DNA of 39,931 nt from an uncultured bacterium. GTDB lineage: Bacteria; Patescibacteriota; Minisyncoccia; Phycocordibacterales; PALSA-1337. Numbering within the stretch: the stretch's first letter is position 1; each line of letters begins with the position of its first letter. The notes beneath the pieces are model-generated. The model saw only the letters and a list, made by a program, of their open reading frames with translations. It did no database searches and had not been told where the DNA came from. Shown in pieces: positions 3,873 through 38,453 of this stretch. A program made the translations under genes and the position numbers. The stretch lies in NCBI GenBank assembly GCA_903837075.1, contig CAILTI010000010.1:1-39931 (forward strand), written 5' to 3'.

Positions 3873-5165
3873 ATGTCCAAATTCCAGATCATCACCCTAG
3901 CAGTCTTCGTTGTTTGCATCATCGGCGGTGTGATCGGTTTTGCGACATTCAAGGGTAGTTCGAGTAAAACTACGTTGTCACCGATAACAGTCTGGGGTAC
4001 GTTTCCAGCAGAAACATTTACTCAGTATCTTGGCAATATAAATAATGGCGCCGCGGAGCCTGTCAATGCGACTTATACACAGATCGCACCTGACCAGTTC
4101 AACGGTACCTTTATCGCCGCTCTAGCTCGCGGAACGGGACCAGATGTCGTACTTCTGCCAGTTGATATGATACTGCCACATCTCGACAAGATCACCTCTA
4201 TACCTTATACAGCCTTGCCACAGAGGACATTCATGGATACCTATATCCAGGAAGCCAATATCTATCTTTCTGCGAATGGCGCTCTAGCGATACCATTCAC
4301 TGTTGACCCACTCATCATGTACTGGAATAGGGACATGTTCAATGCGGCCGGTATAGCAACATATCCGAAATACTGGGATGAGACGGTCAAACTCATTCCC
4401 AAGCTCACAGTGAGAGATAGCAATGGTAATGTTACAAAATCAACCATGGCTATGGGAGATTTTACCAATACTACGAACGCGCGTGAAATATTCGGAACGC
4501 TCCTCATGCAACTCGGCAATCCAGTGACCGCATATGATGGTAAGGGACTATTGGGGACTACGATATCGAGCCAGAATGCCTCTGTCTCACAGGCAGTACT
4601 CAGTTTCTATACACAGTTCGTTGATCCATCGAGTCCGAACTATACCTGGAATAGGGGGATGCCCAATGACAAGACTGCATTCCTGTCTGGTATCACCGGG
4701 ACATATTTTGGCTTTGCTTCGGAACTCAAGGGCCTCCGTGCCAAGAATCCGAACTTGAACTTTGATGCTGCGCCACTGCCCCAAGTCAAAACTGGTGGCA
4801 CGAAAGCGACATATGGTCGGATGTATGGTTTCTCGATCCTGAAGAGTTCTGCCAATGTGAACAACGCCTATCAGATCATTTCTGCCTTGACATCCGCGGC
4901 AAATCTAGCCTCTCTATCCACAACATTGTATCTGCCTTCAGTGCGTAGAGATCTCATCGCCGCTGGTTCTAGTGATCCGTACCTGAGCGTGTTCGATACC
5001 ACAGCACTCATCACGAACACCTGGCTAGATGCAGATGTGTCCCAGTCACGAGCGCTCTTCGCTAACATGGTACAATCAGTGACGAGTGGCAAGAATACAG
5101 TTAGTGAAGCTATTCAGGATATAGAGAGTCAGTACAATCTGTTGTTGAGGAATACGACGCAATGA
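3873..5165 (+). CDS. Membrane-anchored extracellular solute-binding protein (ABC transporter family 1-like)
   Basis: 430 aa. It has an N-terminal TM anchor (IITLAVFVVCIIGGVIGFATF) and sugar-SBP-like motifs (PDVVLLPVD, MYWNRDMFNAAGI). No permease or ATPase gene is adjacent. Confidence 0.7.
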   Translation: MSKFQIITLAVFVVCIIGGVIGFATFKGSSSKTTLSPITVWGTFPAETFTQYLGNINNGAAEPVNATYTQIAPDQFNGTFIAALARGTGPDVVLLPVDMILPHLDKITSIPYTALPQRTFMDTYIQEANIYLSANGALAIPFTVDPLIMYWNRDMFNAAGIATYPKYWDETVKLIPKLTVRDSNGNVTKSTMAMGDFTNTTNAREIFGTLLMQLGNPVTAYDGKGLLGTTISSQNASVSQAVLSFYTQFVDPSSPNYTWNRGMPNDKTAFLSGITGTYFGFASELKGLRAKNPNLNFDAAPLPQVKTGGTKATYGRMYGFSILKSSANVNNAYQIISALTSAANLASLSTTLYLPSVRRDLIAAGSSDPYLSVFDTTALITNTWLDADVSQSRALFANMVQSVTSGKNTVSEAIQDIESQYNLLLRNTTQ

Positions 5166-5275
5166 TAGATAATGTAAAATTGAAACATCAAAATGGAAAA
5201 TTATAATGTAACATTAAAATTAACTGACTTCTCTATGAGAGATTTTCCATTTTAATTTTTACATTTTACACTCTT

Positions 5276-5809
5276 ATGAAACGAACCATCTTTACAACCA
5301 CCGTTCTAGTTATCATCGCGGCACAGCTTCCTTTTGTGACTATGGCCGCTACCTCGCAGACTATCAATATCACAGACCCAACATTCAAATTCGTGATGTG
5401 TGACGGACCGGATCTCAGCAAACTGCCACCAACTGAAACGATAACTATCAATCATGTAGAATATATTCCTGGGACGCGCAGTACGAAGATCACACCGTTT
5501 CCCTATACTGGTGGTTCAGCATATCCTGACTGGTACCATCCCTGCGACTTCAACGCCCTCGTAGATACCGCTCAGCGTCTCATTAATATCATCGTATCAG
5601 TCGGTGTATTCGCGGCTCTGGGTAGTTTTGTCTATATCGGCTTTCTATACATCGAAGGTACCGAAAAGGGTCGCACGAAGGTCAAGGACATGTTCCCAAA
5701 AATGTTCAAGGGGTTTATACTGATGTTGTCAGCTTGGTTCATCATTTATCAATTACTGGGTTGGCTGGGCGCCAGCGAAGGGTTCAGGTCACTATTAGGT
5801 AGTCCGTAA
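5276..5809 (+). CDS. TrbC/VirB2-like (T4SS-pilin-like) small membrane protein, paralog 1, with an extra Cys-containing N-terminal domain
   Basis: 177 aa with a signal peptide, then a C-terminal TM1 / short K,E-rich loop / TM2 module (IIVSVGVFAALGSFVYIGFLYI-EGTEKGRTKVK-..FILMLSAWFIIYQLLGWL). Confidence 0.55.
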   Translation: MKRTIFTTTVLVIIAAQLPFVTMAATSQTINITDPTFKFVMCDGPDLSKLPPTETITINHVEYIPGTRSTKITPFPYTGGSAYPDWYHPCDFNALVDTAQRLINIIVSVGVFAALGSFVYIGFLYIEGTEKGRTKVKDMFPKMFKGFILMLSAWFIIYQLLGWLGASEGFRSLLGSP

Positions 5810-5818
5810 TATATTTAT

Positions 5819-6292
5819 ATGAAAAAAATTCTTTATATCCTTCTTATATCACTAGCTTGCTCTGCTACATTTGTATCGGGAAATTCTTTTGCTCAAAATA
5901 ATAAAACGGATAGTAATGCCGTTCTAGATTCTAATAGTAAGACTGATTCAAATACACCTCAATCAACCGCTGCATCAACTCTCAAAAATCCACTCAAGGT
6001 TAATTCGATAGGTGACCTGGTAAAGTCTGTGCTCCAGGTGTTCAGCTACATCGCAGTACTCTTCGGGGTAGTTATGCTCATAGTTGTAGGTTTCAAATAC
6101 ATCCTCTCTCAAGGCAAGCCCGAAGAAATGAAAAAAGCTAGTAATGAACTCCTCTATATCGTCATAGGTCTAGCTATCGTGATCGGCGCCAGAGTAGCTG
6201 TCGATATCGTCATTAATACGATGAGTAGTACGGGTGTGATAGATCCGAATGTTATCCAAAGTGCCAAAGATGCCAATAAACAGAATTATTAA
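5819..6292 (+). CDS. TrbC/VirB2-like small membrane protein, paralog 2
   Basis: 157 aa with a signal peptide, a low-complexity N/S/T region, and TM1-QGKPEEMKK-TM2. Confidence 0.55.
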   Translation: MKKILYILLISLACSATFVSGNSFAQNNKTDSNAVLDSNSKTDSNTPQSTAASTLKNPLKVNSIGDLVKSVLQVFSYIAVLFGVVMLIVVGFKYILSQGKPEEMKKASNELLYIVIGLAIVIGARVAVDIVINTMSSTGVIDPNVIQSAKDANKQNY

Positions 6293-6310
6293 CTGAACTT
6301 ATCAATAAAT

Positions 6311-6682
6311 ATGAACAAGAAATATATAAAGTACGTGTTGTCATTTGGCGCCCTATCATTGCCTGTTATAACATTTGCCGCAGCGACGACCAAGACGTTG
6401 GTAGGACTCGTTCAAGTCATCATACCTTATCTGAATCTGGCCCTATATCTCATGATGTCCTTTGCAGTCATCATGTTCGTTTTCTATGTTATCAAGTATT
6501 TTGTTTTGCCGAATGAGAAAAGGGGAGAGGGGAACATGTACGTTATGTATAGCCTACTGGGTTTTTTTGTGATTCTATCATTCTGGGGATTGGTGAATAT
6601 ACTACTAAATAGCTTTGATCTGGCGAATAAGGACAATACTCCGAGCAATTGGGGCGCACTATCGAACATATTTCCGAAATAA
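6311..6682 (+). CDS. TrbC/VirB2-like small membrane protein, paralog 3
   Basis: 123 aa with a signal peptide and TM1-PNEKRGEG-TM2 (SFWGLVNILL). Confidence 0.55.
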   Translation: MNKKYIKYVLSFGALSLPVITFAAATTKTLVGLVQVIIPYLNLALYLMMSFAVIMFVFYVIKYFVLPNEKRGEGNMYVMYSLLGFFVILSFWGLVNILLNSFDLANKDNTPSNWGALSNIFPK

Positions 6683-6793
6683 TAGACAGGTTACATATCC
6701 ACAGCTCAGCCCTGTTATGCCAGCGTGATTCGTGTATAATTAACAGTACCTAATATAACAGTATTAGCATTTAATAATTATTAATAAAATAAT

Positions 6794-7192
6794 ATGAAAA
6801 AAATCATAGCAGCAGCACTCGCTTTCGCACCAGTAGTAGCTTTAGCACAGAACACAGTAGTACCAGTAGCAATAACAGATGCCAATACTCTGTCACAGAC
6901 GCTTATCAACCTAGGCAACATGTTTACTTATTTGTTGGTTGCTGTAGCAGTTATATTTATTATATGGAATGTTGTATGGTATATGGTCAAGGGTAATGAC
7001 CCTGAGGCACGTGGGAAAGCTGGCCAGTCGATCATGTGGGGCATAGTTGGATTGTTCATTATTCTATCTATCTGGGGACTAGTTGGTATTTTGACTGGTA
7101 CGTTTAGGACAAGAACACCAAGTACTGCCATACCTCAGATTCAGCAGGTAATTAATGGAAATATACCACCTCTTCCTGGTTTCCAGAGATAA
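6794..7192 (+). CDS. TrbC/VirB2-like small membrane protein, paralog 4
   Basis: 132 aa with a signal peptide (ALA-QN) and TM1-KGNDPEARGK-TM2 (SIWGLVGILT). Confidence 0.55.
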   Translation: MKKIIAAALAFAPVVALAQNTVVPVAITDANTLSQTLINLGNMFTYLLVAVAVIFIIWNVVWYMVKGNDPEARGKAGQSIMWGIVGLFIILSIWGLVGILTGTFRTRTPSTAIPQIQQVINGNIPPLPGFQR

Positions 7193-7199
7193 AATCGAT

Positions 7200-7484
7200 A
7201 TGTTGTCACCTTCCTCTCTTTTAGCTGCCGTAAGTCCAGATGATTTTGGTAAGGCGATATCTCCTATAATAGTACATATCGTCACTCCGGCGCTAGAGAT
7301 CTTGTTCGCTGTCGCTCTGCTCATATTCGCCTATAGCGTGGCACGTCTCATCTGGGGATCTGCTGAGGGTGAAGATCGAGCGAATGCAAAAAAAAGTATG
7401 TTGGGTGGCATCATCGGTATGTTCATCATGTTATCGGCGTGGGGGATAGTGTATGTCATCTCAAATACGGTCAAAACATTTTGA
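7200..7484 (+). CDS. TrbC/VirB2-like small membrane protein, paralog 5 (no obvious signal peptide)
   Basis: The start is placed at ATG 7200 (MLSPSS...) rather than 7155, which overlaps paralog 4. The module is TM1-GSAEGEDRANAKK-TM2 (SAWGIVYVIS). Confidence 0.5.
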   Translation: MLSPSSLLAAVSPDDFGKAISPIIVHIVTPALEILFAVALLIFAYSVARLIWGSAEGEDRANAKKSMLGGIIGMFIMLSAWGIVYVISNTVKTF

Positions 7485-7508
7485 GAGTTAGAGGATCAGT
7501 ATAAAAGG

Positions 7509-7544
7509 AAAAGGGCTGACGAAGTATTTCGTCAGCCCTTTTTT
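7509..7544. terminator. Bidirectional rho-independent terminator between convergent units
   Basis: AAAAGGGCTGACGAA (7509-7523), GTAT loop, TTCGTCAGCCCTTTT (7528-7542). A/T runs lie on both sides. Confidence 0.8.
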
Positions 7545-7557
7545 GATTCTAAAAGAA

Positions 7558-8127
7558 CTATTTGATGCCTTGCATCGCCCGAACGGCCTGCAGGCGCCAA
7601 TCGGATGGCGGCCTCGTTCCGTAATCATACAGGCAGTACACCAGCGTTTTACCCACTGACCGATCATTTGCCGCCTTCAAGGCGAATGCATATGTCTGTC
7701 CTTTGGCAACGTAGTTTGGCAAGTCGTTGTTCGTAAGGCTGAACTTTTCAAAGAACTCCTTATCGTTATTTGTCTTGTCGAAGACCTCGACGTCGTCGCC
7801 GGCGGTCTCGATGATGAAGTGTTCACCTTTGTCACTATTCACCGCCACAATTCCACTGTAGTCTTTCGACAACGTGATGTAACCGAACCGGTAGGGTTGA
7901 TGTACGACCTGAGCCGCTTGTTGCGGTTGTGGTGCTGTTGGGCCAGCTCCTCCTGGCGACTTTGCTTCCGAAACAATATACATGGTGAACGGGACCGCTG
8001 CTATGATGAGAAATATCACGATAACAGCTAAGATAATGATCCACCTCCAATGTTTGGAAGTGTCTGATTTTGGTTCTGTCGGATCCTTGTCTTCGGTTCC
8101 GGCAAATGTGCCTCCATTTATTGCCAT
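7558..8127 (-). CDS. Single-pass membrane protein with an extracytoplasmic ~110-aa domain (gene A of the block), translationally coupled to the upstream gene
   Basis: 189 aa. A TM helix (WIIILAVIVIFLIIAAVPFTMYIV) is followed by the Pro/Gln linker PQPQQAAQVVHQ. Its start overlaps the upstream stop as TAATG (8125-8129). Confidence 0.6.
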   Translation of the reverse strand: MAINGGTFAGTEDKDPTEPKSDTSKHWRWIIILAVIVIFLIIAAVPFTMYIVSEAKSPGGAGPTAPQPQQAAQVVHQPYRFGYITLSKDYSGIVAVNSDKGEHFIIETAGDDVEVFDKTNNDKEFFEKFSLTNNDLPNYVAKGQTYAFALKAANDRSVGKTLVYCLYDYGTRPPSDWRLQAVRAMQGIK

Positions 8128-9176
8128 TATTTTCCTTTCGTTTTTGCTGTTTGTGCCAGGAGCGTAGAAAGTATATTGGGGTCTACGTTCTTGCCGAGTC
8201 CGGTAACCATTATCGGATTCAGACCCTGGATCCTGCCTGCGATCGCCGCCGTCAGCATTAGCAAGACGTCTGGCGCCAAATCTTTGGCAGTTTCAACGTC
8301 AAGGCCACCTCGGAGTGCTGCCATTACTTTTGCCATATTGTCTGCGACTGCTACAGCTTGAACCGCTTCCTGATATGATTTTGTGCGCTGGATGTCGATG
8401 AGCTTTAGTTCCTTCGTGGAGACACCTATCTTCAGCTCTCGGTCATCTACGGTGTGATCGCCACCGAACAAGGTTTCGAAACGCTTTATGAGTATCATTT
8501 TTCCCTTGTCTTCTTCCTTTGCGTCCGGGCCATCTATTGTCTTGAAAACATCCTCTTCCTTCATACCTTTTATGGTTTGAATGAAGAATTGATCGACCTC
8601 GGCTTTGAGGTTTGATGTTATTGCATCTTCACTCTGACGTATCAGAGTGACGAGTTTTCCCGGTAACGGTGTAGCTGTCAATTGCCAATGTATAAGTAGC
8701 TCGATGTCCTCACCTTTTTGGGTATATACCATGAGTGGTTCTTTGCCAGTACCCACGATGATCTCGCTCTTCATATTGATGGGAGCGCCAACTTTGTACT
8801 CTGTTGGCCATTTTCCTCGCCAACCAGAGCCGATCTCTCTCATTGAGGCTATTTCGCCCACACTGAGACGTGAGTCCAGATCCTTCGTCATCTTGTCTCT
8901 CACTATTTGATTGGCTAGAACACGCCGGTGATTTGGTTGGGTGTATATGAACCACCAACCGAACATTGGGCTCTTGAATAGTATGAGCGCCCATCCGATG
9001 ATGCTGACACTGAGACATGTCAGCGTAGCCCAGAACCAACTTGCTCCGGAAAACACAACGATGGGCAAGCCGACGAACGTGCAGAGGATGCCGAACAAGA
9101 TGCCAGCACCTAGTACCTGGACTAGCACCGACAACCAGAAAAGTTCCTTCTCTGGTTGTATTTCATTTTCTTTCAT
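8127..9176 (-). CDS. Polytopic membrane protein with a tentative SPFH/band-7-like domain (gene B)
   Basis: 349 aa with N-terminal TM helices. The following region fits the general SPFH pattern (MVYTQKGEDIELLIHWQL; LKIGVSTKELKLIDIQRTKSYQEAVQAVAVADNMA) and ends in an Ala-rich tail. The assignment was made by eye only. Confidence 0.55.
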   Translation of the reverse strand: MKENEIQPEKELFWLSVLVQVLGAGILFGILCTFVGLPIVVFSGASWFWATLTCLSVSIIGWALILFKSPMFGWWFIYTQPNHRRVLANQIVRDKMTKDLDSRLSVGEIASMREIGSGWRGKWPTEYKVGAPINMKSEIIVGTGKEPLMVYTQKGEDIELLIHWQLTATPLPGKLVTLIRQSEDAITSNLKAEVDQFFIQTIKGMKEEDVFKTIDGPDAKEEDKGKMILIKRFETLFGGDHTVDDRELKIGVSTKELKLIDIQRTKSYQEAVQAVAVADNMAKVMAALRGGLDVETAKDLAPDVLLMLTAAIAGRIQGLNPIMVTGLGKNVDPNILSTLLAQTAKTKGK

Positions 9177-9279
9177 TTTTCTTCCTTTTCTTTCGGACCA
9201 CCCAAACAGGGAAGTCCATTTTTTTGTTTTTTATTTGATTGTCGATGAGCCTTCCTTGTGGTTCATCTACCTGTTATCT

Positions 9280-9308
9280 ATTATAGCATTTATAGACATC
9301 GATGTCAA
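9280..9308 (-). promoter_or_regulatory. Sigma-70-type promoter of genes B-A
   Basis: On the minus strand: TTGACA (9308-9303), 17-nt spacer, TATAAT (9285-9280). Confidence 0.65.
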
Positions 9309-9396
9309 GTTATTTTATGGCCCAGAATATAGCCCAAATTGGCATGATATCGATATAGTGGAGATCGGCCGCCGTTAAGTGGGGCTAATTTCATAT

Positions 9397-9418
9397 AAAA
9401 AAAGCACCCCATGGCGCT
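9397..9418 (-). terminator. Terminator of gene C (part of the 133-nt repeated 3' module)
   Basis: Minus-strand RNA reads AGCGCC-AUGG-GGUGCU followed by U7. Confidence 0.55.
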
Positions 9419-9471
9419 TTCTTCGTGAGTCCTTTGAGTGGAAACACTTGAAAGCACCACGTGGGTGTTTG

Positions 9472-10029
9472 CTAGCGGCGCTTGTCGCCATGCTGTCCAC
9501 CACCTTGTGGTGGTGAATTGTGCTGTGGGGGTCCCGATCGAGACCCGTTGTTGTTACCGCCGCTTTGGCGGTAACTGGAGTTGTGATGGTAAGTTGGTGA
9601 GCGCCCATTGTGTCCACCCCAATACCACGAGGGGTAACCGTAAGTGTAACCACCGTAGTATCCGCTGTATCCGTAACCTACACCATAAGCATAGGTTGGC
9701 GGAACATACGAGTACGTGATGTTGTGCTGGACCGGTTTGGCCGGTTCATCGAATGGTGCCGGTGAATAACTGATCGGCTTCGAACCAGCCCAGTCAGCTG
9801 TCGGTCCCGCCTGATGGACGGGAGCTGCTTCGGCTTGTGGAGCGGGAGCAGGGGCGGGTGCATCCAGCTGTTGAACCGTATCGCCATTATTGCTCCTGAC
9901 TGCGATTATTGTAACAGTGCAGGTTGAAACTCCAGTTTGCTCTGCGGTTAGACATGTACTAATCCCACCCACAAATAGAACTGTCATCAGTATTACTATG
10001 CTGTAGAATTTGCGACCGATTTTATTCAT
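9472..10029 (-). CDS. Secreted or lipid-anchored low-complexity Tyr/Gly-rich protein (gene C)
   Basis: The start is placed at ATG 10029 (MNKIGRKFYS...) because the GTG extension to 10053 would run through the conserved leader hairpin. It has a signal peptide ending ..GGISTC, the linker APAPAPQAEAAPVHQ, and then YAYGVGYGYSGYYGGYTYGYPSWYWGG. Confidence 0.6.
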   Translation of the reverse strand: MNKIGRKFYSIVILMTVLFVGGISTCLTAEQTGVSTCTVTIIAVRSNNGDTVQQLDAPAPAPAPQAEAAPVHQAGPTADWAGSKPISYSPAPFDEPAKPVQHNITYSYVPPTYAYGVGYGYSGYYGGYTYGYPSWYWGGHNGRSPTYHHNSSYRQSGGNNNGSRSGPPQHNSPPQGGGQHGDKRR

Positions 10030-10110
10030 TCCTATCCTTTCTTTGTGAGCCACCCAAAATAGGGAAGCTCGGTTGTTATTTTGTTGTCGGTGATCATTTA
10101 CCTGTGTGAA

Positions 10111-10139
10111 ATCATAGCACTTAAGGCAAGCTATGTCAA
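10111..10139 (-). promoter_or_regulatory. Sigma-70-type promoter of gene C
   Basis: On the minus strand: TTGACA (10139-10134), 17-nt spacer, TATGAT (10116-10111). Confidence 0.65.
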
Positions 10140-10308
10140 TATATGTGGGGGGTAGTGAGTTTGCATTCTAAATGTACATATAAAAAAAGCACCCCATGGC
10201 GCTTTCTTCGTGAATCCCTATAAAGAGAATCACTTGAAAGCACCACGTGGGTGTTTGTTAGCGGCGATTGCCGCCATGCTGTCCACCACCTTGTGGTGGC
10301 GAATTGTG

Positions 10309-11643
10309 CTATTGAGGTCCAGTGTGTCCGGAGCCTGCGGGGACTACATATGAACTGTTTACGTCTTGAGCGTATATAGTACCCAGGAGTTGTACAAAAT
10401 TCCCCTGAACAGTAGTGACGGATGAGAATCCGCCGGATGATGCAGAACTTTCTGGCATCTGATTCTTCGCCGGCGCCATAGTACTGGTCGGCGCGTTGCC
10501 AACCTGGTTAGCGACCGATTCCGTTTGATGGACGGGAGCTGCTTCGGCTTGTGGAGCGGGAGTAGGTGCGGGTGCATTCGTCGGCGCTTGTTGCGCTGGC
10601 GGAAGCGCTGGAGCACCTTGATGCGGCGGGCCCCGCAAGATCTGCGTCGGCGGAAGGTGAACGATCACCGGTTGCACCACTATGGTGTTCCCGACAGCAT
10701 TCCCTTTATTATTGTTGTTGCCTGTTCCAAAGTTTATTTGGACGTTACTCAGGTTGTTGAAGCAATTGCTGAGACCACTCAACCGATTGTCAACAATCAC
10801 CGTTTGCGCCTGAGTTGAGGACGACACGACGACGGCGTCGTTGTTAGTCGAGCCATCAGGATCGATCGTCGTCACTTTGCCAGTGATGACATTTTGAATG
10901 ATAACTCTCCTTGCCTTGGGGGCGGGAGCTGGTACCGGCGCTGGCGCTGGTGCTGGGATTGGTGCTGCTTGTGTGGGTGCACTGACATTTGGGGCGGCGC
11001 TCGCTGGGAGAGCGCCCGAAACGTTGTTAGTGAGTCCTGCAGCGGCCGCTCCACGAGGAGTTCCGCTGCATGTGCGGACTAGGACGATCGTCCCGAGTAC
11101 CGCGATGATGATCGCGGCTCGGAGCCATGGCCCCCATCTATTTTTACTTGTCGGTGCCGTAGGCCGAGAGAGAAGTGTCTCTACACCGGCACTGATCGCA
11201 GCAACCTCTGCAGTGGTCACTGCTGGACGGGCGAGAATGGTTTTGACATTCTCACAGATCGCCGTGACGTCGACAGGATTTACTGCCGGCCGATCAACGA
11301 GCGTCGTGATCTTGGTGCTGATCTCGTTCAGCGAGATCGTGTTCTGCCCAGTTCCGTTCGCAATGGATTGGAAGCTTCCCGCAGCTCCTAGGAGGGCGTC
11401 TTTTATGTCCGTATGAAGCGTGAACAATTTCTCCAACGATGTATTCATCGCATCAATATTGCCGACCACTTTGTTCATGTCGGGCTCACTTTTCGTTGCC
11501 TTGTCCGCCACTGAACCTGTGTTAGACGTCGCTTTGTCAGCTGGCGATACTGCGTCTGCTGCAGGCTCAATTTTCGTCTCCTTAGCAGCCTCTTCAGTTT
11601 GCAGCGTCGGCGGGGTCACGGGCACTTTGCTATCTTCTTCCAT
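10309..11643 (-). CDS. Bitopic membrane protein (gene D): acidic, repeat-containing N-terminal part, central TM helix, Pro/Ala-rich and beta-rich exterior part
   Basis: 444 aa. The TM helix is WLRAAIIIAVLGTIVLV. Internal repeats are RPAVNPVDVTAICENVKTIL / RPAVTTAEVAAISAGVETLL. It carries the linker PAPQAEAAPVHQ shared with gene C. The ORF ends at a TAG that interrupts the tail conserved in gene C. Confidence 0.6.
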   Translation of the reverse strand: MEEDSKVPVTPPTLQTEEAAKETKIEPAADAVSPADKATSNTGSVADKATKSEPDMNKVVGNIDAMNTSLEKLFTLHTDIKDALLGAAGSFQSIANGTGQNTISLNEISTKITTLVDRPAVNPVDVTAICENVKTILARPAVTTAEVAAISAGVETLLSRPTAPTSKNRWGPWLRAAIIIAVLGTIVLVRTCSGTPRGAAAAGLTNNVSGALPASAAPNVSAPTQAAPIPAPAPAPVPAPAPKARRVIIQNVITGKVTTIDPDGSTNNDAVVVSSSTQAQTVIVDNRLSGLSNCFNNLSNVQINFGTGNNNNKGNAVGNTIVVQPVIVHLPPTQILRGPPHQGAPALPPAQQAPTNAPAPTPAPQAEAAPVHQTESVANQVGNAPTSTMAPAKNQMPESSASSGGFSSVTTVQGNFVQLLGTIYAQDVNSSYVVPAGSGHTGPQ

Positions 11644-11748
11644 ATTTTTTTTCTTTCTTTTTGGTATTGGTTTATATAGCCAATACCGGGTTTTTTATTG
11701 AATTGTCGATGAGCCACGTTCTGTTGCGATCCATCGTTACTGGGGTGA

Positions 11749-11777
11749 ATAATAGCATTATAGAGCAAATCTGTCAA
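11749..11777 (-). promoter_or_regulatory. Sigma-70-type promoter of gene D
   Basis: On the minus strand: TTGACA (11777-11772), 17-nt spacer, TATTAT (11754-11749). Confidence 0.65.
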
Positions 11778-11803
11778 TAGCGGATAAATTCGCGATATGT
11801 CTA

Positions 11804-11832
11804 TTGACAATGATAGAGAAAGATGCCATAAT
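11804..11832 (+). promoter_or_regulatory. Divergent sigma-70-type promoter of the 467-aa orphan gene
   Basis: TTGACA (11804-11809), 17-nt spacer, CATAAT (11827-11832). It sits back to back with the gene D promoter, 26 bp away. Confidence 0.55.
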
Positions 11833-11931
11833 AGCCAAAGCTAAAGTTCATTGTAAATTCGTGATTGAACTGAGTGCTAAGTCAAACAACCCTGAGGCTT
11901 TTTGGCCTCAATACAGAAAGGGATAGAATAA

Positions 11932-13335
11932 ATGAGTGAGAAAAAGGCAGGCAAGTATAGTGTTAGTCAAATCGTACTGTCGGCCGGTTTCGGACTGGAG
12001 TGTGTGGCAGCACGTCTGCTACTCATGTGGTATGGATCAAAGAAGTTCATTGGCATCAGTGATGCCAAGGCAACATTCACTGAAGGTGAGGTGTGCGGTT
12101 CTGATCAAGAGTTGGAGGAAAAGGGTATCCTGCCCATCGGTTGCGGCCTGGGTCGTTATGGGCGCGAAGTCGAGCATCCGGCGTTACAAGTTGCCAACGA
12201 CCTTAATGTTGCGACGAGGACGTCGATCGTGCCACTTCTAGAGGTTTTTTCCTCGAAGAAGGGAAATGGTAGCCAGTTGCGGTTGGAGGTATTGATCAGC
12301 CCTGTTCGTCGTGGGTCGAAAAGCACAGGCCATAATGAAACGTTGTGGACAATGACGCTGTTGTTGAACGCCGTCATCTATCAACGTGAATTTTGTCAGG
12401 CCGCTATCCAGAAGGAAATCACACTTCAGGATATTTTCGACAGGATGAACTTTCCTGATCTAAGAATAAAGGCATTCATCTCCGCACAGGTGCAAAAAAG
12501 CATGGAGGCAGATCCTGATAAGGATGTGACCGAGCTTAGTTATGTGATAAGGGCACTGTTCCGATATCCGGACTCTAAAAATGTCGTGAGGTCGCCGTAC
12601 TCGGATGAAATGATCGTGAAGGCGGCGTACACGGAAGAGATGATCGTTAAGTGGGTATCAAATTTACTCAACGCCTTCTACGAGCAGCAGTGCGATTTCT
12701 GGAAGGCGGTCGACGAGGTTCGATCGATCAAGCCGATACGGGTACCGGCGCATATAGGGAATAACACTTCTCCTCTCATGTTGCTGGTCTGTACTAGCGA
12801 CAATGATCAGGTCAAAAGTGCAGCCATGTACAAACATGGCTACGAAGCAGATATCGTGCTTCAAAAGGAAAAAACATCTGGTCGGTATCATGTCTACTTT
12901 GATTCCAAAATTGCGGGTCTTTCCGGGAAAAACCTCGGCAAGATGATCGAGTGGTGGGAATCATCGGACGCTGTAAGATCAAAATTACGGTGGCTCGAAA
13001 TCGGTAAATTCGAAGACAAGGTATCAGGTGTTGGTTGGTGGTACTTTGACAAAAAAGGAAATCTCCACAACGGTTCCCGAAACTACCCCAAAAAGGTGTC
13101 ATCGTTGACGACCGACAACCTGGTCGCATTCATGAAGCACGCATTTGACCTCGGGCAACTGAAGGCGTGGTGTAAAGAATATGACATAACAATGTCAGAT
13201 GACGCTCATTCTGGCGCGAAGCCTACCAGCACACCCAAAGCCCCGATCATGACCGAAGAAACTAAAGTTAAGGCGGGTAATGGTATGGTGGATGCGCTGA
13301 TGTCCATCGATAGCAATCTGTTTGCTATCAAGTAG
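11932..13335 (+). CDS. Hypothetical cytoplasmic protein with no recognisable motif
   Basis: A 467-aa uninterrupted ORF with its own promoter and a strong terminator. It contains a short internal duplication (SDEMIVKAAYTEEMIVKW). Confidence 0.6.
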   Translation: MSEKKAGKYSVSQIVLSAGFGLECVAARLLLMWYGSKKFIGISDAKATFTEGEVCGSDQELEEKGILPIGCGLGRYGREVEHPALQVANDLNVATRTSIVPLLEVFSSKKGNGSQLRLEVLISPVRRGSKSTGHNETLWTMTLLLNAVIYQREFCQAAIQKEITLQDIFDRMNFPDLRIKAFISAQVQKSMEADPDKDVTELSYVIRALFRYPDSKNVVRSPYSDEMIVKAAYTEEMIVKWVSNLLNAFYEQQCDFWKAVDEVRSIKPIRVPAHIGNNTSPLMLLVCTSDNDQVKSAAMYKHGYEADIVLQKEKTSGRYHVYFDSKIAGLSGKNLGKMIEWWESSDAVRSKLRWLEIGKFEDKVSGVGWWYFDKKGNLHNGSRNYPKKVSSLTTDNLVAFMKHAFDLGQLKAWCKEYDITMSDDAHSGAKPTSTPKAPIMTEETKVKAGNGMVDALMSIDSNLFAIK

Positions 13336-13350
13336 CACATTCAATCACGA

Positions 13351-13387
13351 AAAGGGCCGCCAATAAAATGGTGGCCCTTTTCTTTTT
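13351..13387 (+). terminator. Rho-independent terminator of the 467-aa gene
   Basis: AAAGGGCCGCCA / loop ATAAAA / TGGTGGCCCTTT, followed by TTCTTTTT. Confidence 0.75.
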
Positions 13388-13417
13388 GCCTAAATATTAT
13401 GGGGTACAGATCATCAG

Positions 13418-13437
13418 TGCCGGGGAGAGGACTCGAA
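13418..13437 (-). repeat. Exact 20-nt duplicate of the tRNA-Leu(UAG) 3' end (att-like remnant)
   Basis: TGCCGGGGAGAGGACTCGAA at 13418-13437 is identical to 13578-13597 inside the tRNA. An imperfect inverted copy lies at 13517-13533. Confidence 0.7.
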
Positions 13438-13577
13438 GCCTACGGCTTCAGTACAGTCTTCGTATTTTTTCCCCTTCTCCGCTAAAGCTACGAAGTGTCA
13501 AAAATATACTCAGACTCTTCGAGTCCTCCCCGCAAGCCTGTCGGCTTGCTCCAGCACAAACTCGCTTCGCTCGTTTG

Positions 13578-13659
13578 TGCCGGGGAGAGGACTCGAACCT
13601 CCATGGATTGCTCCGCGTGGTCCTAAGCCACGTGCGTCTACCAATTTCGCCACCCCGGC
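13578..13659 (-). tRNA. tRNA-Leu, anticodon UAG
   Basis: The 82-nt reverse complement GCCGGGGTGGCGAAATTGGTAGACGCACGTGGCTTAGGACCACGCGGAGCAATCCATGGAGGTTCGAGTCCTCTCCCCGGCA folds as a cloverleaf with a long variable arm. The anticodon loop is CTTAGGA. No CCA is encoded. Confidence 0.9.
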
Positions 13660-13820
13660 GGGTTTCGTGATATCTACTTTATATTATTATTGTCATATTG
13701 TCTAACTTACCAAAACCTGTTAGAGTAATTTGCGAGGTGTCCACGTCTTTGTTTCGTTCGATATAGGCACTGCGCTCGGACGTAGAGTCCAAGCAAGCTT
13801 GTCCTCTAGCATCCTCACTC

Positions 13821-13893
13821 GCGCCCATAGCTCAGCTGGTAGAGCAGATCCCTCTTAAGGATAAGGTCGTAGGTTCGATCCCTACTGGGCGCA
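13821..13893 (+). tRNA. tRNA-Lys, anticodon CUU
   Basis: 73 nt: acceptor GCGCCCA/TGGGCGC, D arm GCTC..GAGC, anticodon loop CTCTTAA, T arm GTAGG-TTCGATC-CCTAC. Confidence 0.9.
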
Positions 13894-13965
13894 CAAAAAT
13901 TGCAAGGAGACTCTAGAGACGTATTCTAGTTGCAGAATTCAGCTATTTATGTAATACTATTGCCC

Positions 13966-14187
13966 ATGGTAAATCGAATGCGATCAACGCGGGCACACCG
14001 CAACAATAGGCGTTCACATCATGCACTCGACGCAGTGCGTCTAGCGAAGTGTGGCACATGCCAAGCTCTTCATCAGAGCCATATGATCTGTATGAATTGC
14101 GGCTCTTACAATGGTCGCAAGGTTATCGATCTAGCAGCAAAGGTTGCCAAGAAGGCCGCCAAGGCGAAAGCAGCTGCCAAGAAATAG
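13966..14187 (+). CDS. rpmF: 50S ribosomal protein L32
   Basis: The start is placed at ATG 13966 (MVNRMRSTRAHRNNRRSHHAL...). It has a CxxC...CxxC zinc ribbon (CGTC...CMNC) and a Lys/Ala tail. Confidence 0.85.
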   Translation: MVNRMRSTRAHRNNRRSHHALDAVRLAKCGTCQALHQSHMICMNCGSYNGRKVIDLAAKVAKKAAKAKAAAKK

Positions 14188-16140: not shown

Positions 16141-19100
16141 ATGCACCTGAAATCATTAGAAATTTCCGGATTCAAATCATTCGCAAAAAAGGCGAATCTA
16201 GAGTTCAATACCCCGATAACAGGCATAGTAGGCCCGAATGGATCCGGGAAGTGTGTTGATGGTGGAACATTGGTTCAACTGGAGGACGGGTCTATTAAAC
16301 CGATCAAAGAACTATTTGATATGGCTCAATCTCGAGCTCGAGCGGTTACGATGTTCGATGATGGAATGGCGGTTATCGATACCAATGTTTCATTTAACGT
16401 TGCTGCACTCAATTTATATACATTAAAAACAGATTGGCGTCACGTTACGGCTTTTGTCCGTCGAACGGCACCAGAGAAGATGCTGGAGATCAACACACGA
16501 TCAGGAAGAACGATCACAGCTACTCCATATCATCCATTGTTCGGGTGTGAAAATGGGACTGTTCATTCTGTTCGTGCCGACGCAGTAAAAACTGGTTTAC
16601 GTATCGCTACGCCAAGATCATTGCCAGTTGTTGGGAGGATGCAGCGCATAATGATGAAAGATGTCGCAGCCGCTTTCAAACCAGAAGATAACGTCTATGT
16701 CCCATACAGTCCGATTCTAGAAGAGCTTATGGATCTGCGAATGATAGAAAAGAGTGTGACGACGACGAGAGCGCTTGAGAGAGTCTCTGGTGTTGAGGAG
16801 TGTGTCTTTGCTCGTGTTCGAATGTCTCAAGCTATGCCTGTAACATATCTCCCGGCTTTGTGTGGTCCATACATATATACGTTTGGGAACCGCACATTGA
16901 AATCAAAGGGTGAGGGAACTATGAAGATACCTGAATATATCGATGAGGAAGTTGCCAGATTCCTTGGATACATCATAGCTGAAGGTAGGACATCTAGAAA
17001 TGGCCAGGTTTGGTATGTGAATGATGATCCAGCATCTGTAGCCGATTATGTTTCATGTGTTCGCAAATGCTTTGGTTTGGAAGCAAAAGTATTTTCTTAT
17101 AAAGGCGATACAAAAGATGTCATTACATTTTCCATAACGCTTGCCCGCGTATTGGACAAAATATTTGGCATGACGATCGAAGGACCATCTCGAACAAAGA
17201 AAGTGCCGCCACAGATATTCCAGTCTCGCGATCATGTAGTCGAGGCATTCCTCGGTGCTCTATATGATGGTGATGGACATTTCAGTTTCAAGATATCGAA
17301 AAGTAAGGGTAATAGGCAAGCCTACATCGAGTATACTTCTGCAAGTGAAGAGTTGGCGCGTGGCGTTTCGACTCTGCTACTTAGGTTGGGAATACTCTCA
17401 GACATACAAAAAAAAGAGAAGTGCGCCACGAACACGATTAAAAAGACGGTGCGACCATATTGGTCAGTTTATGTCTATGGTAATGCAAATATTCGTCGCT
17501 TTGTGGAAAGGATCCAACCGAAAGGGAGGAAATCAGCTACCGTAAGAGCTATGCTCGATATGGAGGCAAATCAGGGAAATCCCAATCATGATCTTATTCC
17601 TGGCATTATTGAGCCTTTACATGAACTTATAAAAGAGGCTGGTGTCAGTGTAAAAAAAGCTCGTAAAGAAAACTCGACACTAGCTGCGTATTATGAGAGA
17701 CGCTGTCTGCCTAGTCGAGGAGGAGTGGATAGAGTCATCGATTATCTAGAGTCAATTGTTCCTGAATCAAATACAGCATGGCGACAATGTGCGAACGAAC
17801 TTCGTAAGTTTGCAAGCTCAGATGTTTTGTGGGATGAGATCGTTTCGGTACGTGAGATTCCATCTGGAGAGTACGTTTACGATCTCACAGTTGATGAAGA
17901 CCATAATTTTATAGCCAATAATATATTTGCTCACAATAGTAATGTGGCTGAGGCCTTCAGATTCGTCCTGGGCGAGCAATCTATCAAGTCTCTGCGTGGC
18001 AAACGTGGTGAAGACATGATCTGGAATGGTGGTGGGGAGACTAGCGGAGGTTCAGGTAAAGGTAATAGAGCCAGCGTTAAACTGACTTTCGATAATTCCA
18101 GAAAGATATTTTCCTCGATCGACTTTGATGAGGTAGTGATCGAACGTGTCGTACATAGAGACAATGCAAATGAATATCTACTGAATGGCAGCCAGGTACG
18201 TCTCAAAGATATCATCGAGTTGTTAGCAACTGCACATATCGGCGCCAGTGGTCACCACATCATTTCGCAAGGAGAGGCCGATAGGATACTTTCGGCGTCG
18301 ATCCGTGAACGTAGGGAGATGGTTGAAGACGCATTGGGACTCAAACTCTACCAATGGAAGAAACTGGAAAGTCTGCACAAGCTAGAACGTACCGAAGAAA
18401 ACATGAAGCAGGTAGAGTCACTGCGCCGAGAGATCGCACCACATATCAGATTCTTGAAGAAACAGGTGGAGAAAGTCGAGAAAGCTGAGGAGCTCCGCAA
18501 AGAATTGATCGTGCTATACCAGGAATACTTCGCTAGCGAAGAATACTATCTGAACTCTGAAAAGAGCCGACTAGTAAAAGCACTGTCTGGTCCGCAACAG
18601 GAATTGTCAGACCTCGACCGCGCTTTGGAGAATGCCAAGAAGATCATTACTGATTCGAAATTCAAGGATTCGAAAAGTGACGCCGTCATCTCTGTCGAAA
18701 ATAGATTGGCGAAGGTGAGAGCAGACAAAGACTCCGTCGTGCGTGAGTTGGGTCGCATCGAAGGAGAGATTTCTGCAAACAGGAGAGCGATCGAAAAGGA
18801 GCATTCGCGAATGCAGGATGAAGAGTCAAAGACCGTCTATCTCCGAGATGTCGAGGAAGTAGTCAGGAATATTGAGAGATTGAATGATTCAAAGATCGAG
18901 GGACTGGACACGGCGGAGAAGGCCAGGAATTTCTTTCTCGAGATCATCTCCTCTCTCAAGTCATTTATTACCAAAAATAGATCCACGCACGAGTCTTCGT
19001 TCATCGGTGATGCCGAAAAGGAGATCGCCAACTTGACCGAGAAGAAGGTAGCATCAGACGCTACACTGCAAGCTTTGTCGAGAGACGAAGTGCAATTCCG

Positions 19101-20193
19101 TGCAGAATATGATTCGTTGAGAGACATTATAGAGAAAGAAAAAGATACCAACCGCGAGGCGGAGAAAGATGTATTCAAGATCATCGCCAGGCAGAACGAA
19201 GTCAGGGCGGTCGTGAACAATCTCACAGCGTCAAAGTTGACCGTAGGCCATGAGGAAGAAGCTTTCAAGAGGGAGATGGGTGAAGCTCATATGTTGGTTG
19301 GTCGCGATGCAGTGAATTGGGTTCCGATGGACATCATGTCCGTCGGATCCGTATCTGTTTCAACTAGACAACAGCAGGAGGAGCGCCGCAAGAAGATCGA
19401 GCGCAACAAAGTACGCCTGGAAGACTCTGGTGGCAGTGGTGGTGCAGAAGTTATGAAAGAATTTCGCGAGACAGAAGAGCGCGACGCTTTTTTGGCGAAG
19501 GAGTTGGAGGATCTGAAGAAGGCCGGAGAAGAACTCAGGAAACTGACGACCGAACTCGATGCACGAATAGATATGGAATTCAAAACGGGAATATTGAAGA
19601 TAAATAGCGAATTCAAGAAATACTTTTCTCTGATGTTCGGTGGCGGACACGCGGAGTTGACTGTCGTCAGAGAAGTTAGGCGCAAGAGGAAGGGCGATAT
19701 GGATGATCTCAGTGGACTGCTGAGAGGTGAGAGCGATGGAATGTTATCAGGAGAAATGTCAGCCCGCTTGGAAGGAGAAAGCTACTCCTCCCAAAAGGGA
19801 GCGATCGTTAATAATGAAAGTAATGAAGAACTATTGCCCGAAGGCTTGGACGTCAACGTCAGTCTCCCGAGGAAGAAGATCAAAGGCTTGATGATGCTCT
19901 CTGGCGGAGAGAGGGCACTGACGTCGATCGCTTTACTTTTCGCGATCTCTCAGGTAAATCCTCCACCATTCGTCATACTCGATGAAACAGATGCGGCACT
20001 AGACGAGGCAAATTCACGCAAGTATGGAGACATGATCGCAGATCTTTCGGAACATTCACAACTCATCCTGATCACGCACAATAGGGAAACCATGTCTCGT
20101 GCTGGAGTACTCTATGGCATAACGATGGGATCTGACGGTGCTTCACGACTGCTCTCTATCCAATTCGAAGAGGCGGTCAAAGTAGCGAAGTGA
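16141..20193 (+). CDS. smc: SMC-type chromosome condensation ATPase, interrupted by an intein. The spliced product would be about 788 aa.
   Basis: The N terminus is LEISGFKSFA..GIVGPNGSGK. After the intein come SNVAEAFRFVLGEQS, long coiled coils, the C-terminal signature LSGGERALTSIALLFAI, and Walker B PFVILDETDAALD. Confidence 0.9.
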   Translation: MHLKSLEISGFKSFAKKANLEFNTPITGIVGPNGSGKCVDGGTLVQLEDGSIKPIKELFDMAQSRARAVTMFDDGMAVIDTNVSFNVAALNLYTLKTDWRHVTAFVRRTAPEKMLEINTRSGRTITATPYHPLFGCENGTVHSVRADAVKTGLRIATPRSLPVVGRMQRIMMKDVAAAFKPEDNVYVPYSPILEELMDLRMIEKSVTTTRALERVSGVEECVFARVRMSQAMPVTYLPALCGPYIYTFGNRTLKSKGEGTMKIPEYIDEEVARFLGYIIAEGRTSRNGQVWYVNDDPASVADYVSCVRKCFGLEAKVFSYKGDTKDVITFSITLARVLDKIFGMTIEGPSRTKKVPPQIFQSRDHVVEAFLGALYDGDGHFSFKISKSKGNRQAYIEYTSASEELARGVSTLLLRLGILSDIQKKEKCATNTIKKTVRPYWSVYVYGNANIRRFVERIQPKGRKSATVRAMLDMEANQGNPNHDLIPGIIEPLHELIKEAGVSVKKARKENSTLAAYYERRCLPSRGGVDRVIDYLESIVPESNTAWRQCANELRKFASSDVLWDEIVSVREIPSGEYVYDLTVDEDHNFIANNIFAHNSNVAEAFRFVLGEQSIKSLRGKRGEDMIWNGGGETSGGSGKGNRASVKLTFDNSRKIFSSIDFDEVVIERVVHRDNANEYLLNGSQVRLKDIIELLATAHIGASGHHIISQGEADRILSASIRERREMVEDALGLKLYQWKKLESLHKLERTEENMKQVESLRREIAPHIRFLKKQVEKVEKAEELRKELIVLYQEYFASEEYYLNSEKSRLVKALSGPQQELSDLDRALENAKKIITDSKFKDSKSDAVISVENRLAKVRADKDSVVRELGRIEGEISANRRAIEKEHSRMQDEESKTVYLRDVEEVVRNIERLNDSKIEGLDTAEKARNFFLEIISSLKSFITKNRSTHESSFIGDAEKEIANLTEKKVASDATLQALSRDEVQFRAEYDSLRDIIEKEKDTNREAEKDVFKIIARQNEVRAVVNNLTASKLTVGHEEEAFKREMGEAHMLVGRDAVNWVPMDIMSVGSVSVSTRQQQEERRKKIERNKVRLEDSGGSGGAEVMKEFRETEERDAFLAKELEDLKKAGEELRKLTTELDARIDMEFKTGILKINSEFKKYFSLMFGGGHAELTVVREVRRKRKGDMDDLSGLLRGESDGMLSGEMSARLEGESYSSQKGAIVNNESNEELLPEGLDVNVSLPRKKIKGLMMLSGGERALTSIALLFAISQVNPPPFVILDETDAALDEANSRKYGDMIADLSEHSQLILITHNRETMSRAGVLYGITMGSDGASRLLSIQFEEAVKVAK
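16252..17937 (+). mobile_element. Full-length intein (562 aa) with a LAGLIDADG homing endonuclease domain, inserted in the SMC Walker A loop
   Basis: It starts with Cys (GSGK|CVDGGTLV). Block B is TATPYHPLF. The LAGLIDADG motifs are FLGYIIAEGRTS and FLGALYDGDGHFS. It ends ...VYDLTVDEDHNFIANNIFAHN|S with Ser at +1, and removing it restores GPNGSGKS. Confidence 0.9.
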
Positions 20194-26794: not shown

Positions 26795-26852
26795 ACAATT
26801 ACGGTAAACCAAACAAATAAACAGAAAAATTGCAGTTAACGTTAACTCGGTA

Positions 26853-29988: not shown

Positions 29989-30072
29989 ACAGGGACTAGT
30001 GTCTAGGGGATAGTGACTAGTAATAGCAGATAAAACTAACCACTAACAACTAGTCACTAATCACTAAATAAA

Positions 30073-30471
30073 ATGCCTAACAAAGATACAATAAATAACG
30101 AAGTAGTTTCCCAGCCTGTTGTAAAGAAGGCTCCACGCACGAGGAAACCGAAGGCCGTCGCGGAGACGCCACACCTCCGGATCCGAGTGAGAGCTTACGA
30201 ACACAAGATACTGGACTCTTCTTTGAAACAGATCATGGATACGGCCGCCAGATACGATGCGGAGATACATGGTCCAGTGCCTCTGCCAACAGAGATCAAG
30301 AAGTACACCGTTAACCGTTCCTCATTCATCGACAAGAATTCCAGAGAGCAGTTCGAGATGAGAGTACACAAGAGGCTGATAGATATAGTGAATCCAAATC
30401 CGAAAGTTATCGAAGCACTCACAAATCTAAGTCTGCCGTCAGGAGTGAATATCGATGTGAAGATGATGTAA
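30073..30471 (+). CDS. rpsJ: 30S ribosomal protein S10 (with a ~30-aa basic N-terminal extension)
   Basis: LRIRVRAYEHKILD...GPVPLPT... Confidence 0.93.
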   Translation: MPNKDTINNEVVSQPVVKKAPRTRKPKAVAETPHLRIRVRAYEHKILDSSLKQIMDTAARYDAEIHGPVPLPTEIKKYTVNRSSFIDKNSREQFEMRVHKRLIDIVNPNPKVIEALTNLSLPSGVNIDVKMM

Positions 30472-31239: not shown

Positions 31240-31330
31240 GATTGAAAGATTGAAAATTGAGTGATTGAAAAATAGTAGTGAAAATGAATCATTCAATCCT
31301 TCAATATTCAATCATTCAATAAATAATACA

Positions 31331-32020: not shown

Positions 32021-32053
32021 CCCCTAATCACTATACCCTAACCCCTAACTACC

Positions 32054-35840: not shown

Positions 35841-35880
35841 TCATTCAATTTTCAATCTTTCAATCATTTAATCAACCACC

Positions 35881-37656: not shown

Positions 37657-37747
37657 TCATTAAAAGATTGAAAATTGAAAAATTGAAAGACAACATAGAA
37701 AGAAAATCCTTCAATTATTCAATCTTCAATCATTCAATATAAATTCC

Positions 37748-38384: not shown

Positions 38385-38453
38385 ATAAAAAGGGTATAGG
38401 GTTTAGTAAATAAACACTAAACCCCAGCCCCTAGCCCCTAAACCCTAACTACC

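Follow-up and report, generated by a model that had tools for sequence, protein, structure and literature searches.

The subject of this analysis is a block of four consecutive genes, here called A, B, C and D, in a 39,931-nucleotide stretch of DNA from an uncultured bacterium (assembly GCA_903837075.1, contig CAILTI010000010.1, positions 1 to 39,931; this whole stretch is "the window" hereafter). The window is a chromosomal segment of an ultra-small bacterium of the Paceibacteria/Parcubacteria, within the candidate phyla radiation (CPR). The four open reading frames (ORFs), A (7558-8127), B (8127-9176), C (9472-10053) and D (10309-11643), all lie on the minus strand, opposed to their neighbours as a preliminary description of the sequence had noted; every neighbouring protein gene across 472-24418 is on the plus strand. 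On the gene A side of the block, the order is gyrA, a methyltransferase, a sugar-type solute-binding protein (SBP) and five genes for type IV secretion system (T4SS) pilins of family PF18895. On the gene D side come a gene for a 467-aa protein, two tRNAs, a NusB-NUDIX fusion, RNase III, an intein-containing SMC, ClpB, EF-Tu and ribosomal proteins. The sole close relative of B found by word-indexed protein search (97% identical) carries the NCBI label Candidatus Taylorbacteria.

The boundaries of the block are as had been proposed. A bidirectional intrinsic-terminator-like hairpin (7509..7542, not assigned to a strand) divides the pilin array from gene A; it is a perfect 15-bp inverted repeat (7509-7523 and 7528-7542) around a 4-nt loop, with A and T runs on either side. 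At the opposite end, a divergent promoter-like pair lies at 11777..11749 on the minus strand and 11804..11832 on the plus strand, each scoring 11/12 with an extended -10. Within the block, B (9308..9280), C (10139..10111) and D (11777..11749) each have a strong, near-consensus extended -10 promoter of their own, and a terminator-like element on the minus strand follows C (9392..9432) and is duplicated behind D (10177-10217, 98% identical). Because C and D each end in a terminator, the block comprises three transcription units: D, C and B-A.

Gene B (8127..9176, minus strand, 349 aa) is best described, from its sequence relatives and its predicted structure, as a divergent member of the SPFH/Band-7 (stomatin/prohibitin/flotillin/HflK-C) superfamily, with a predicted membrane hairpin of two helices at the N terminus (aa 8-68), followed by an SPFH domain (about aa 76-264) and a coiled-coil helix (aa 266-291). 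An exhaustive HMMER scan of 1.84 billion cluster representatives yielded 81 relatives at E<=1e-3, 39 of them at E<=1e-10. The Band_7 profile PF01145 is matched by 18 of the 59 aligned family members (best E 1e-10), among them protein P0052 and a tandem SPFH paralogue in a related locus (L017, E 4e-8). The AlphaFold2 (AF2) model of B, built with the family alignment (predicted local distance difference test, pLDDT, 86.6), shows helices at 8-43 and 47-68, a mixed beta/alpha core and the long helix 266-291. Its top Foldseek matches are prohibitin (8rrh), stomatin (9oh9), HflK/C (7vhq/9cz2), erlin, flotillin and QmcA (8z5g), at E 6e-8 to 2e-5 and probability 1.0. The matches to HflK/C, prohibitin, stomatin, flotillin and erlin (E 6e-8 to 1e-5) run full length over 275-298 aligned columns, at 10-15% identity. 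It is the combination of the Band_7 matches of family members with this fold match that identifies B as a divergent SPFH protein: the PF01145 match is present through the family, and the anchor, the alpha/beta fold and the coiled-coil helix are all present in the model. Other routes were less productive. Word-indexed protein search returned only near-identical relatives of B and D, to which a profile round added P0052 alone; sequence searches of the PDB with B and with the B-family profile gave nothing significant; and a search for related loci with a three-sequence B alignment found none in GTDB genomes and four in metagenomes. The earlier statement that none of the four proteins could be confidently matched to a recognised family holds for C and D but not for B.

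Gene A (7558..8127, minus strand, 189 aa) begins where B ends: the TAA of B overlaps the ATG of A as TAATG, with an AAAGGA Shine-Dalgarno (SD) sequence upstream, and the two genes are a translationally coupled operon. A has a short N-terminal tail and one transmembrane (TM) helix (aa ~23-51), from which a Pro/Gln/Ala stalk leads to a beta-rich domain at the C terminus; this domain ends YC.Y....PP.DW and evolves very fast. Its charged N-terminal tail and the K/R residues before the TM helix suggest an N-in/C-out topology. In every locus read, a small single-TM gene lies 0-16 nt behind the B-like gene or overlaps it, and in L017 (4297-7464) there are two tandem pairs of SPFH gene and small partner, each with its own copy of the box-hairpin leader described below and with partners that are paralogous to one another (E 1e-47). 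Some of the partners are mutually homologous (A of the window and that of L015, E 5e-9; those of L009 and L015, E 6.5e-7; 14-sequence database), and these have the C-terminal YC.Y....PP.DW motif in common. A and nine positional homologues have no Pfam match at E<=0.1, NfeD (PF01957) included, and no PDB profile match. A single-sequence AF2 model of A (pLDDT 47.5) contains the TM helix and strands only and is too poor for a fold search.

The B-A operon is preceded by a structured 5′ leader. On the minus strand at 9177..9308, the promoter (9308..9280, 12/12 with TG) is followed by hairpin 1 (about 9241-9270), a box reading TCGACAATCAAA (9234-9245), an A-rich spacer, hairpin 2 (GGACTTCCC-TGTTT-GGGTGGTCC, 9195-9217) and the SD. 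B, C and D resemble one another in their 5′ regions. That of C (10027..10139, minus strand, promoter 10139..10111) is a shortened B-type leader whose hairpin 2, GAGCTTCCC-TATTTT-GGGTGGCTC, differs from that of B in two base pairs, both changes being compensatory. That of D (11641..11777, minus strand, promoter 11777..11749) has in common with B the box GGCTCATCGACAATTCAATAAAAAAC, with hairpin 2 replaced by GGTATTGG...CCAATACC; a 26-nt motif occurs solely upstream of B and D (two matches against 0 expected). The same arrangement of strong promoter, variable hairpin 1, box TTGACAATTTAA (TCGACAATCAAA here), A-rich spacer, hairpin 2 (..CTTCCC-loop-GGG..) and SD recurs before B-like genes in very divergent loci, namely L007, L009, L010, L015, L017 (twice), L021, L023 and L029.

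Several measures bear on whether this leader is a genuine RNA element. Folded alone, 10 of 10 leaders adopt the same architecture, with z from -1.0 to -5.3 (B, -2.8; D, -3.4), and the energy of hairpin 2 ranges from -7.4 to -15.3 kcal/mol across 11 sequences. A relaxed leader pattern has 10 matches in CPR loci, all upstream of B-like genes, against about 0.45 in shuffles. The exact pattern has eight matches in GTDB genomes, of which two are in CPR bacteria (a Minisyncoccia metagenome-assembled genome, MAG, and a Candidatus Paceibacterota MAG), both with the same locus; the remaining six fit the approximately 12 estimated by chance. A covariance model (R1) scores the leaders of B and C, both of them training sequences, at 67.6 and 56 bits, and that of D, which lies outside the training set, at 36.5 bits (E 1e-3); it also gives weak matches ahead of slot genes in L029 and L023. 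In hairpin 2, 86% of cells are paired versus 72% in shuffles, with compensatory changes in 8 of 9 pairs; no shuffle out of 500 attains such values and slid controls give 26-64%, although these counts come from related sequences in an alignment fitted to the model structure and so lean towards structure. A MAFFT-only alignment gave a weak RNAalifold signal because its 3′ arm was out of register, and the covariance-model-based alignment was used instead. An Rfam 15 E-value scan of 7000-14000 found nothing in the leaders (9177-9279, 10030-10110 and 11644-11748); it returned two tRNAs and a few weak matches near 13296-13894, far under gathering scores. The possibility that the conserved box is a second -35 promoter element was considered and rejected, since no -10-like hexamer follows 16-18 nt downstream in any locus.

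The leader is thus apparently a conserved, previously undescribed element that precedes the SPFH gene across the clade. As B and C, and to a weaker degree D, are each preceded by one type of cassette of promoter and structured leader, they are probably co-regulated. The CUUCCC arm is complementary to the downstream GGAAG-type SD, and competition for the SD is conceivable, as a speculation. In one Minisyncoccia MAG (JBEKVT010000002.1; L023, 2391-3873) a leader scoring 55 bits is followed by a gene for a 335-aa membrane protein, a small partner and a pilin array. This 335-aa protein is not recognisable as SPFH by Pfam, and its hhalign comparison with the B family is negative (probability 2%), so it is a positional analogue only; here the RNA element appears to be more conserved than the protein behind it.

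Genes C and D are two monocistronic, low-complexity surface proteins, near-ORFan partial paralogues that fill a variable slot upstream of B. C (9472..10053, minus strand; a 193-aa ORF, probably 185 aa from the ATG at 10029) consists of a signal/anchor segment, a PAPQAEAAPVHQ stalk, a Tyr/Gly-rich low-complexity region and a basic tail. D (10309..11643, minus strand, 444 aa) has an N-terminal region of about 170 aa with RPAV-type repeats, a TM helix at aa ~172-190, and regions rich in Pro/Ala and in Asn; its PAPQAEAAPVHQ stalk occupies aa 361-372, and its C-terminal region is short. The preliminary description had reported a post-anchor linker common to three of the proteins; A does carry PQPQQAAQVVHQ, and C and D both carry PAPQAEAAPVHQ, but in D the linker stands about 170 aa past the anchor and not directly behind it. 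Neither C nor D has a match in Pfam, NCBIfam, PHROGs or PADLOC, nor D in the PDB; across all four proteins, A to D, these four family collections gave no significant match. The family scans detected neither an LPXTG nor an S-layer-homology domain in C or D, nor any other anchoring domain that is known. The sole homologue of D, P0003, is 86% identical and lies on a 1.9-kb contig. Basic, low-complexity tails rich in Gly, Tyr, His and Trp also end slot proteins that are otherwise unrelated (window, 9472-10029; L021, the end of 4626-7766; L023, 5150-6181; L029, 1373-2467), and such tails could be a common wall-binding or sorting feature.

The coding sequences of C and D resemble each other in blocks. 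The reported 51-nt match with 2 mismatches (9812-9862 and 10526-10576) was recovered and falls within a longer stalk block (9769-9863 and 10483-10577). A second block covers the 3′ tail, that is, the last ~17 codons and stop, together with the terminator (9392-9534 and 10177-10320, 91-98% identical); between the two blocks the sequence has diverged. The TAG that ends D (10309-10311) aligns with a CAG (Gln) codon of C, after which 16 codons and a stop still encode, in frame, the tail of C. The segment behind D on the minus strand (10177..10308) accordingly holds an untranslated tail remnant, which at 10258-10308 reads HNSPPQGGGQHGGNRR followed by a stop, and the second terminator copy. Because the 86% identical homologue of D has the same TAG, this stop is not a sequencing error; it reflects either recent truncation or read-through. 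Furthermore, the orthologues of C and D in a sister strain have different stalks (PPAPVTPVHN for C, PAPQTQVAPIPQ for D), whereas in the window the two stalks are identical. This points to recent intragenomic gene conversion, and the stalk and tail of C and D appear to have been recently homogenised through such conversion or recombination.

It is informative to examine the block in light of gene order in its relatives. The conserved arrangement is gyrA, methyltransferase, SBP and four to six T4SS pilin genes, met convergently by the A-like gene, the B-like gene and one or more slot genes, and then a gene for a 450-490-aa protein, L32, NusB-NUDIX, RNase III and SMC. The B-A pair holds this one chromosomal position in at least 10 loci, with B identity of only ~25-37%; the pair is ancient in the clade. 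In other lineages the slot upstream of B holds one or more unrelated single-pass, Pro/Ala-rich proteins of 132-1046 aa. Its far border is formed, in the window, by the plus-strand promoter (11804..11832) and the 467-aa gene (11932-13335), a feature spanning 11804..13335. Homologues of that gene stand at the equivalent position in L010 (4418-5866; 24% identity, E 6e-19) and L011 (3362-4792), and a 486-aa gene does so in L021 (2639-4099); it represents a conserved family without assigned function, with no match for the window protein among Pfam, NCBIfam and the other family collections and no significant PDB sequence match. The block is hence probably a vertically inherited, lineage-wide membrane and cell-surface locus, and C and D occupy a genuinely variable slot.

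Comparison with the sister strain, in 100-nt DNA bins, adds a second kind of variation. The two strains are otherwise close (gyrA 99.2%, B 98% and the flanks 97-99% identical), and divergence is confined to four segments: pilin 2 (5801-6000, plus strand, identity 0.37-0.54), pilins 3-5 (6401-7300, plus strand, 0.47-0.86), the hypervariable ectodomain segment of A (7601-7900, minus strand, aa ~79-170, 0.44-0.58) and the mature part of C (9601-10000, minus strand, 0.72-0.83). The flanks of the diverged pilin bins are at least 0.95 identical, and the flanks of the A segment, together with B, are at 0.94-1.00. At the protein level A is 66% identical to its sister orthologue, with nearly identical ends and the differences in aa ~79-170, and C is 70% identical. 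The array itself (5276..7484, plus strand, convergent with the block) had been described simply as pilin-like; it consists of five VirB2-like T4SS pilin genes, so that the membrane and surface proteins of the block do indeed stand beside a pilin array. Four of the five exceed the 26.6-bit gathering score of PF18895 (E 7.6e-10 to 2.6e-14 and 1.5e-6), and the first (5276-5809) falls slightly under it at 25.2 bits (E 1.8e-5); the pilin profiles PF18895 and PF04956 find no match in A-D. That first gene, whose 177-aa product has a larger domain at its N terminus, shows 95-100% conservation across the strains, and the four downstream (5819-7484) are strongly diverged. This pattern supports the view that pilins 2-5, the ectodomain of A and the mature part of C are outwardly exposed and under a common selective pressure, physical interaction among them not being proven.

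CPR bacteria, or Patescibacteria, are thought to live attached to host cells, and little is known of the molecules by which their surface is organised. We consider it probable that the block is a vertically inherited SPFH-scaffold locus, in which the B-A operon is accompanied by the variable surface proteins C and D and linked to them by a leader in common. By analogy with the SPFH family, B would oligomerise to form a membrane-bound ring or cage around a microdomain, its SPFH domain being more likely cytoplasmic, given its position behind the two-helix hairpin. A, made stoichiometrically, would be the dedicated client of B, with its TM helix and short tail inside the B ring and its ectodomain displayed outward. 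C, D and perhaps the VirB2-like pilins would be further surface components under the same host- or phage-contact selection. On this reading the locus offers a clade-specific SPFH scaffold with a non-NfeD partner, a conserved and apparently undescribed leader that connects this scaffold operon with the variable surface proteins, and a strain-level map in which pilins 2-5, C and the ectodomain of A are under diversifying pressure and are probably exposed; the leader and the hypervariable partner are the parts of most value for follow-up.

Several observations weigh against this interpretation. B alone has no Pfam match at E<=0.1, and its assignment leans on its relatives and on the predicted structure; charge bias leaves its topology undecided, with a mean N-terminal net charge of about 0. 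A has no recognisable domain, and its sole model is of low confidence; a complex of B and A is a proposal by analogy. The structural bias of the leader pair counts, noted above, belongs here as well, as do the covariance-model matches before the slot genes of L029 and L023 (E 0.035 and 0.48), which are not significant alone. Finally, adjacency to the pilins is inseparable from general synteny, as every B-family locus found sits in the same gyrA...smc backbone.

This last point bears on the most probable alternative, that B, A, C and D are dedicated parts of the adjacent VirB2-like pilus, acting as organiser of the pilin pool, anchor or adhesins. Wherever the flank of a locus is long enough, the A-like gene has a convergent T4SS-pilin array beside it; strong divergence between the strains is limited to pilins 2-5, A and C; and VirB2-like arrays are widespread in Patescibacteria, one having been reported as essential (PMC12102498). 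However, the transcription units are separate and convergent with a terminator between them, the adjacency is confounded by synteny of the whole region, no VirB4, VirB6 or VirD4 gene is found in the window, the leader pattern was not found upstream of the pilin genes, and the paper on Patescibacteria T4SS makes no mention of SPFH (PMC12102498). We therefore regard a dedicated pilus role as possible but rather unlikely. A more ambitious proposal, to which we give somewhat less credence still, joins the SPFH cage, its hypervariable partner, the stalked proteins of the slot and the VirB2-like array into one host-contact apparatus of episymbiotic Paceibacteria, in which the non-pilin genes would form a regulon controlled by 5′ leader RNA of a new class (a TTGACAATTTAA box, then a CUUCCC...GGG hairpin just upstream of the SD).

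A second alternative would make the scaffold locus a classical SPFH-NfeD operon, with A as a cryptic NfeD-type partner whose soluble domain lies on the SPFH side of the membrane and within the cage, an arrangement exemplified by E. coli QmcA-YbbJ. The translationally coupled operon fits, the structures matched by B include QmcA from the QmcA-YbbJ complex (8z5g), and A is a small membrane protein whose C-terminal domain is rich in beta structure. Of the features expected of an NfeD/STOPP partner, adjacency to the SPFH gene is seen in all loci read, but the NfeD OB-fold domain is not: at E<=0.1 not one of 10 partners matches any Pfam family, NfeD included, and none has a PDB profile match. In addition, the suggested N-in/C-out topology of A would place its domain across the membrane from an SPFH domain that is more likely cytoplasmic, and that domain is hypervariable between strains in the manner of exposed pilin parts, which would be unexpected of a caged cytoplasmic domain. 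This account strikes us as improbable.

The preliminary description favoured a third possibility, namely a lineage-specific accessory cell-surface module, an undescribed system, here taken as horizontally acquired. Some findings do agree with it: C and D have no family, D has one close homologue, and the slot upstream of B differs in gene content between lineages. The GC content of the block is indeed above that of its neighbours (D 0.554, C 0.53, A 0.498 and B 0.478; the window as a whole is at 0.46 and the pilins are at 0.39-0.47), although below the 55-60% once counted by hand, the mean over 60-nt lines in 9400-11650 being 0.527. As a sign of import, however, the GC shift does not stand up to a windowed GC and codon-position check. 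In C and D the excess lies in the first and second codon positions (GC1/GC2) and tracks a Pro+Ala+Gly content of 31-32%, and third-position GC (GC3) of A-D is ordinary (0.48-0.57, against 0.34-0.62 for 20 other window genes); the excess is thus compositional. The apparent GC island is a composition artefact, which is a caution for sequence scans of this kind. Nor is there the signature of a genomic island otherwise: synonymous-site composition is ordinary, B is an SPFH protein, no mobility genes occur in the window block, and A-B and its flanks, between the pilin array and nusB-rnc-smc, are syntenic in all the very divergent loci, at B identity of ~25-37%, with only the slot contents, C and D, varying. 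That earlier description had itself listed conservation in relatives, composition-driven GC and known families as grounds for abandoning the idea; these largely apply to A-B and do not apply to C and D. For the block as a whole we find import very improbable.

Two side observations concern the slot. In a sister strain (L001, 95-1522) the C orthologue has an IS66-family transposase immediately upstream, which is a point in favour of an accessory module. Many related contigs break just upstream of B or C (the ends of L003, L005, L006, L012 and L013). Together these observations suggest that the slot is a rearrangement or repeat hot spot, and they fit repeat-driven assembly breaks.

Least probable of all is a dedicated mechanism (cassette gene conversion, a diversity-generating retroelement, DGR, or an invertase) that diversifies C, D and A, for although the stalk and tail of C and D are identical within the strain and unlike those of the orthologues, the divergence is mosaic, and the TAG of D stands for a CAG in C with the shared tail continuing in frame, there are two partial copies only, no template repeat for the variable region of A anywhere in the window, no reverse transcriptase or recombinase among the scanned window ORFs, and in A a variable segment of ~270 nt at <60% identity, unlike adenine-targeted DGR mutagenesis. 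The specific idea of a DGR with a template repeat for A was rejected, as the repeats of the A, C and D variable regions in the window are the C/D blocks only.

Elsewhere in the window, the SMC gene (16141-20193) contains an intein (Intein_splicing, E 6e-26) that includes a LAGLIDADG homing-endonuclease domain, and the SMC proteins of relatives are ~760 aa and intein-free. Upstream of several genes in the ribosomal-protein region, AT-rich motifs recur between genes: GATTGAAAATTGA ... AATCATTCAATC, and CTAACCCCTAA-type runs that end at ATG (31241-31330, 35825-35875 and 37659-37748; and 30018-30075, 31999-32056 and 38399-38456). These may be leaders or hairpins that the genes have in common. A 349-aa ORF at 26853-27902 has the highest GC of the window (0.54, GC3 0.62) and no Pfam match, and it overlaps a minus-strand ORF at 26799-27197.

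It is also worth considering how the proposed scaffold locus relates to known systems; a literature search on SPFH proteins in CPR bacteria found nothing relevant. The VirB2-like pilin arrays of Patescibacteria have been described as 441 arrays of 2-11 genes, and variation among their paralogues has been discussed as a route to surface diversity (PMC12102498). The tandem, highly divergent PF18895 genes beside the block are of the same kind, but that account includes no SPFH gene, partner or leader (PMC12102498), and the block forms separate, convergent transcription units. With the SPFH-NfeD operons, of which E. coli QmcA-YbbJ (PDB 8z5g) is an example, the locus has in common an SPFH gene followed by a tightly coupled gene for a small membrane protein. 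It differs in that the partner lacks an NfeD/OB-fold signature (0 of 10), has one TM helix and probably displays an extracellular, strain-hypervariable domain, and in that the N terminus of B forms a two-helix hairpin and its coiled coil is short. The cages of HflK/C-FtsH, prohibitin, stomatin, flotillin and erlin are matched by the fold of B over its full length, and a ring or cage would be expected by analogy; however, the identity is 10-15%, B is under the Pfam Band_7 threshold, no protease or channel partner is encoded nearby, and the family is limited to 81 cluster representatives among 1.84 billion. Likewise, C and D differ from the Pro/Ala-rich stalked surface proteins of monoderms in having no detected LPXTG or S-layer-homology domain, but they have in common with them an anchor or signal, a Pro/Ala stalk and repetitive Tyr/Gly- or Asn-rich regions, an architecture that is typical of wall-spanning proteins.

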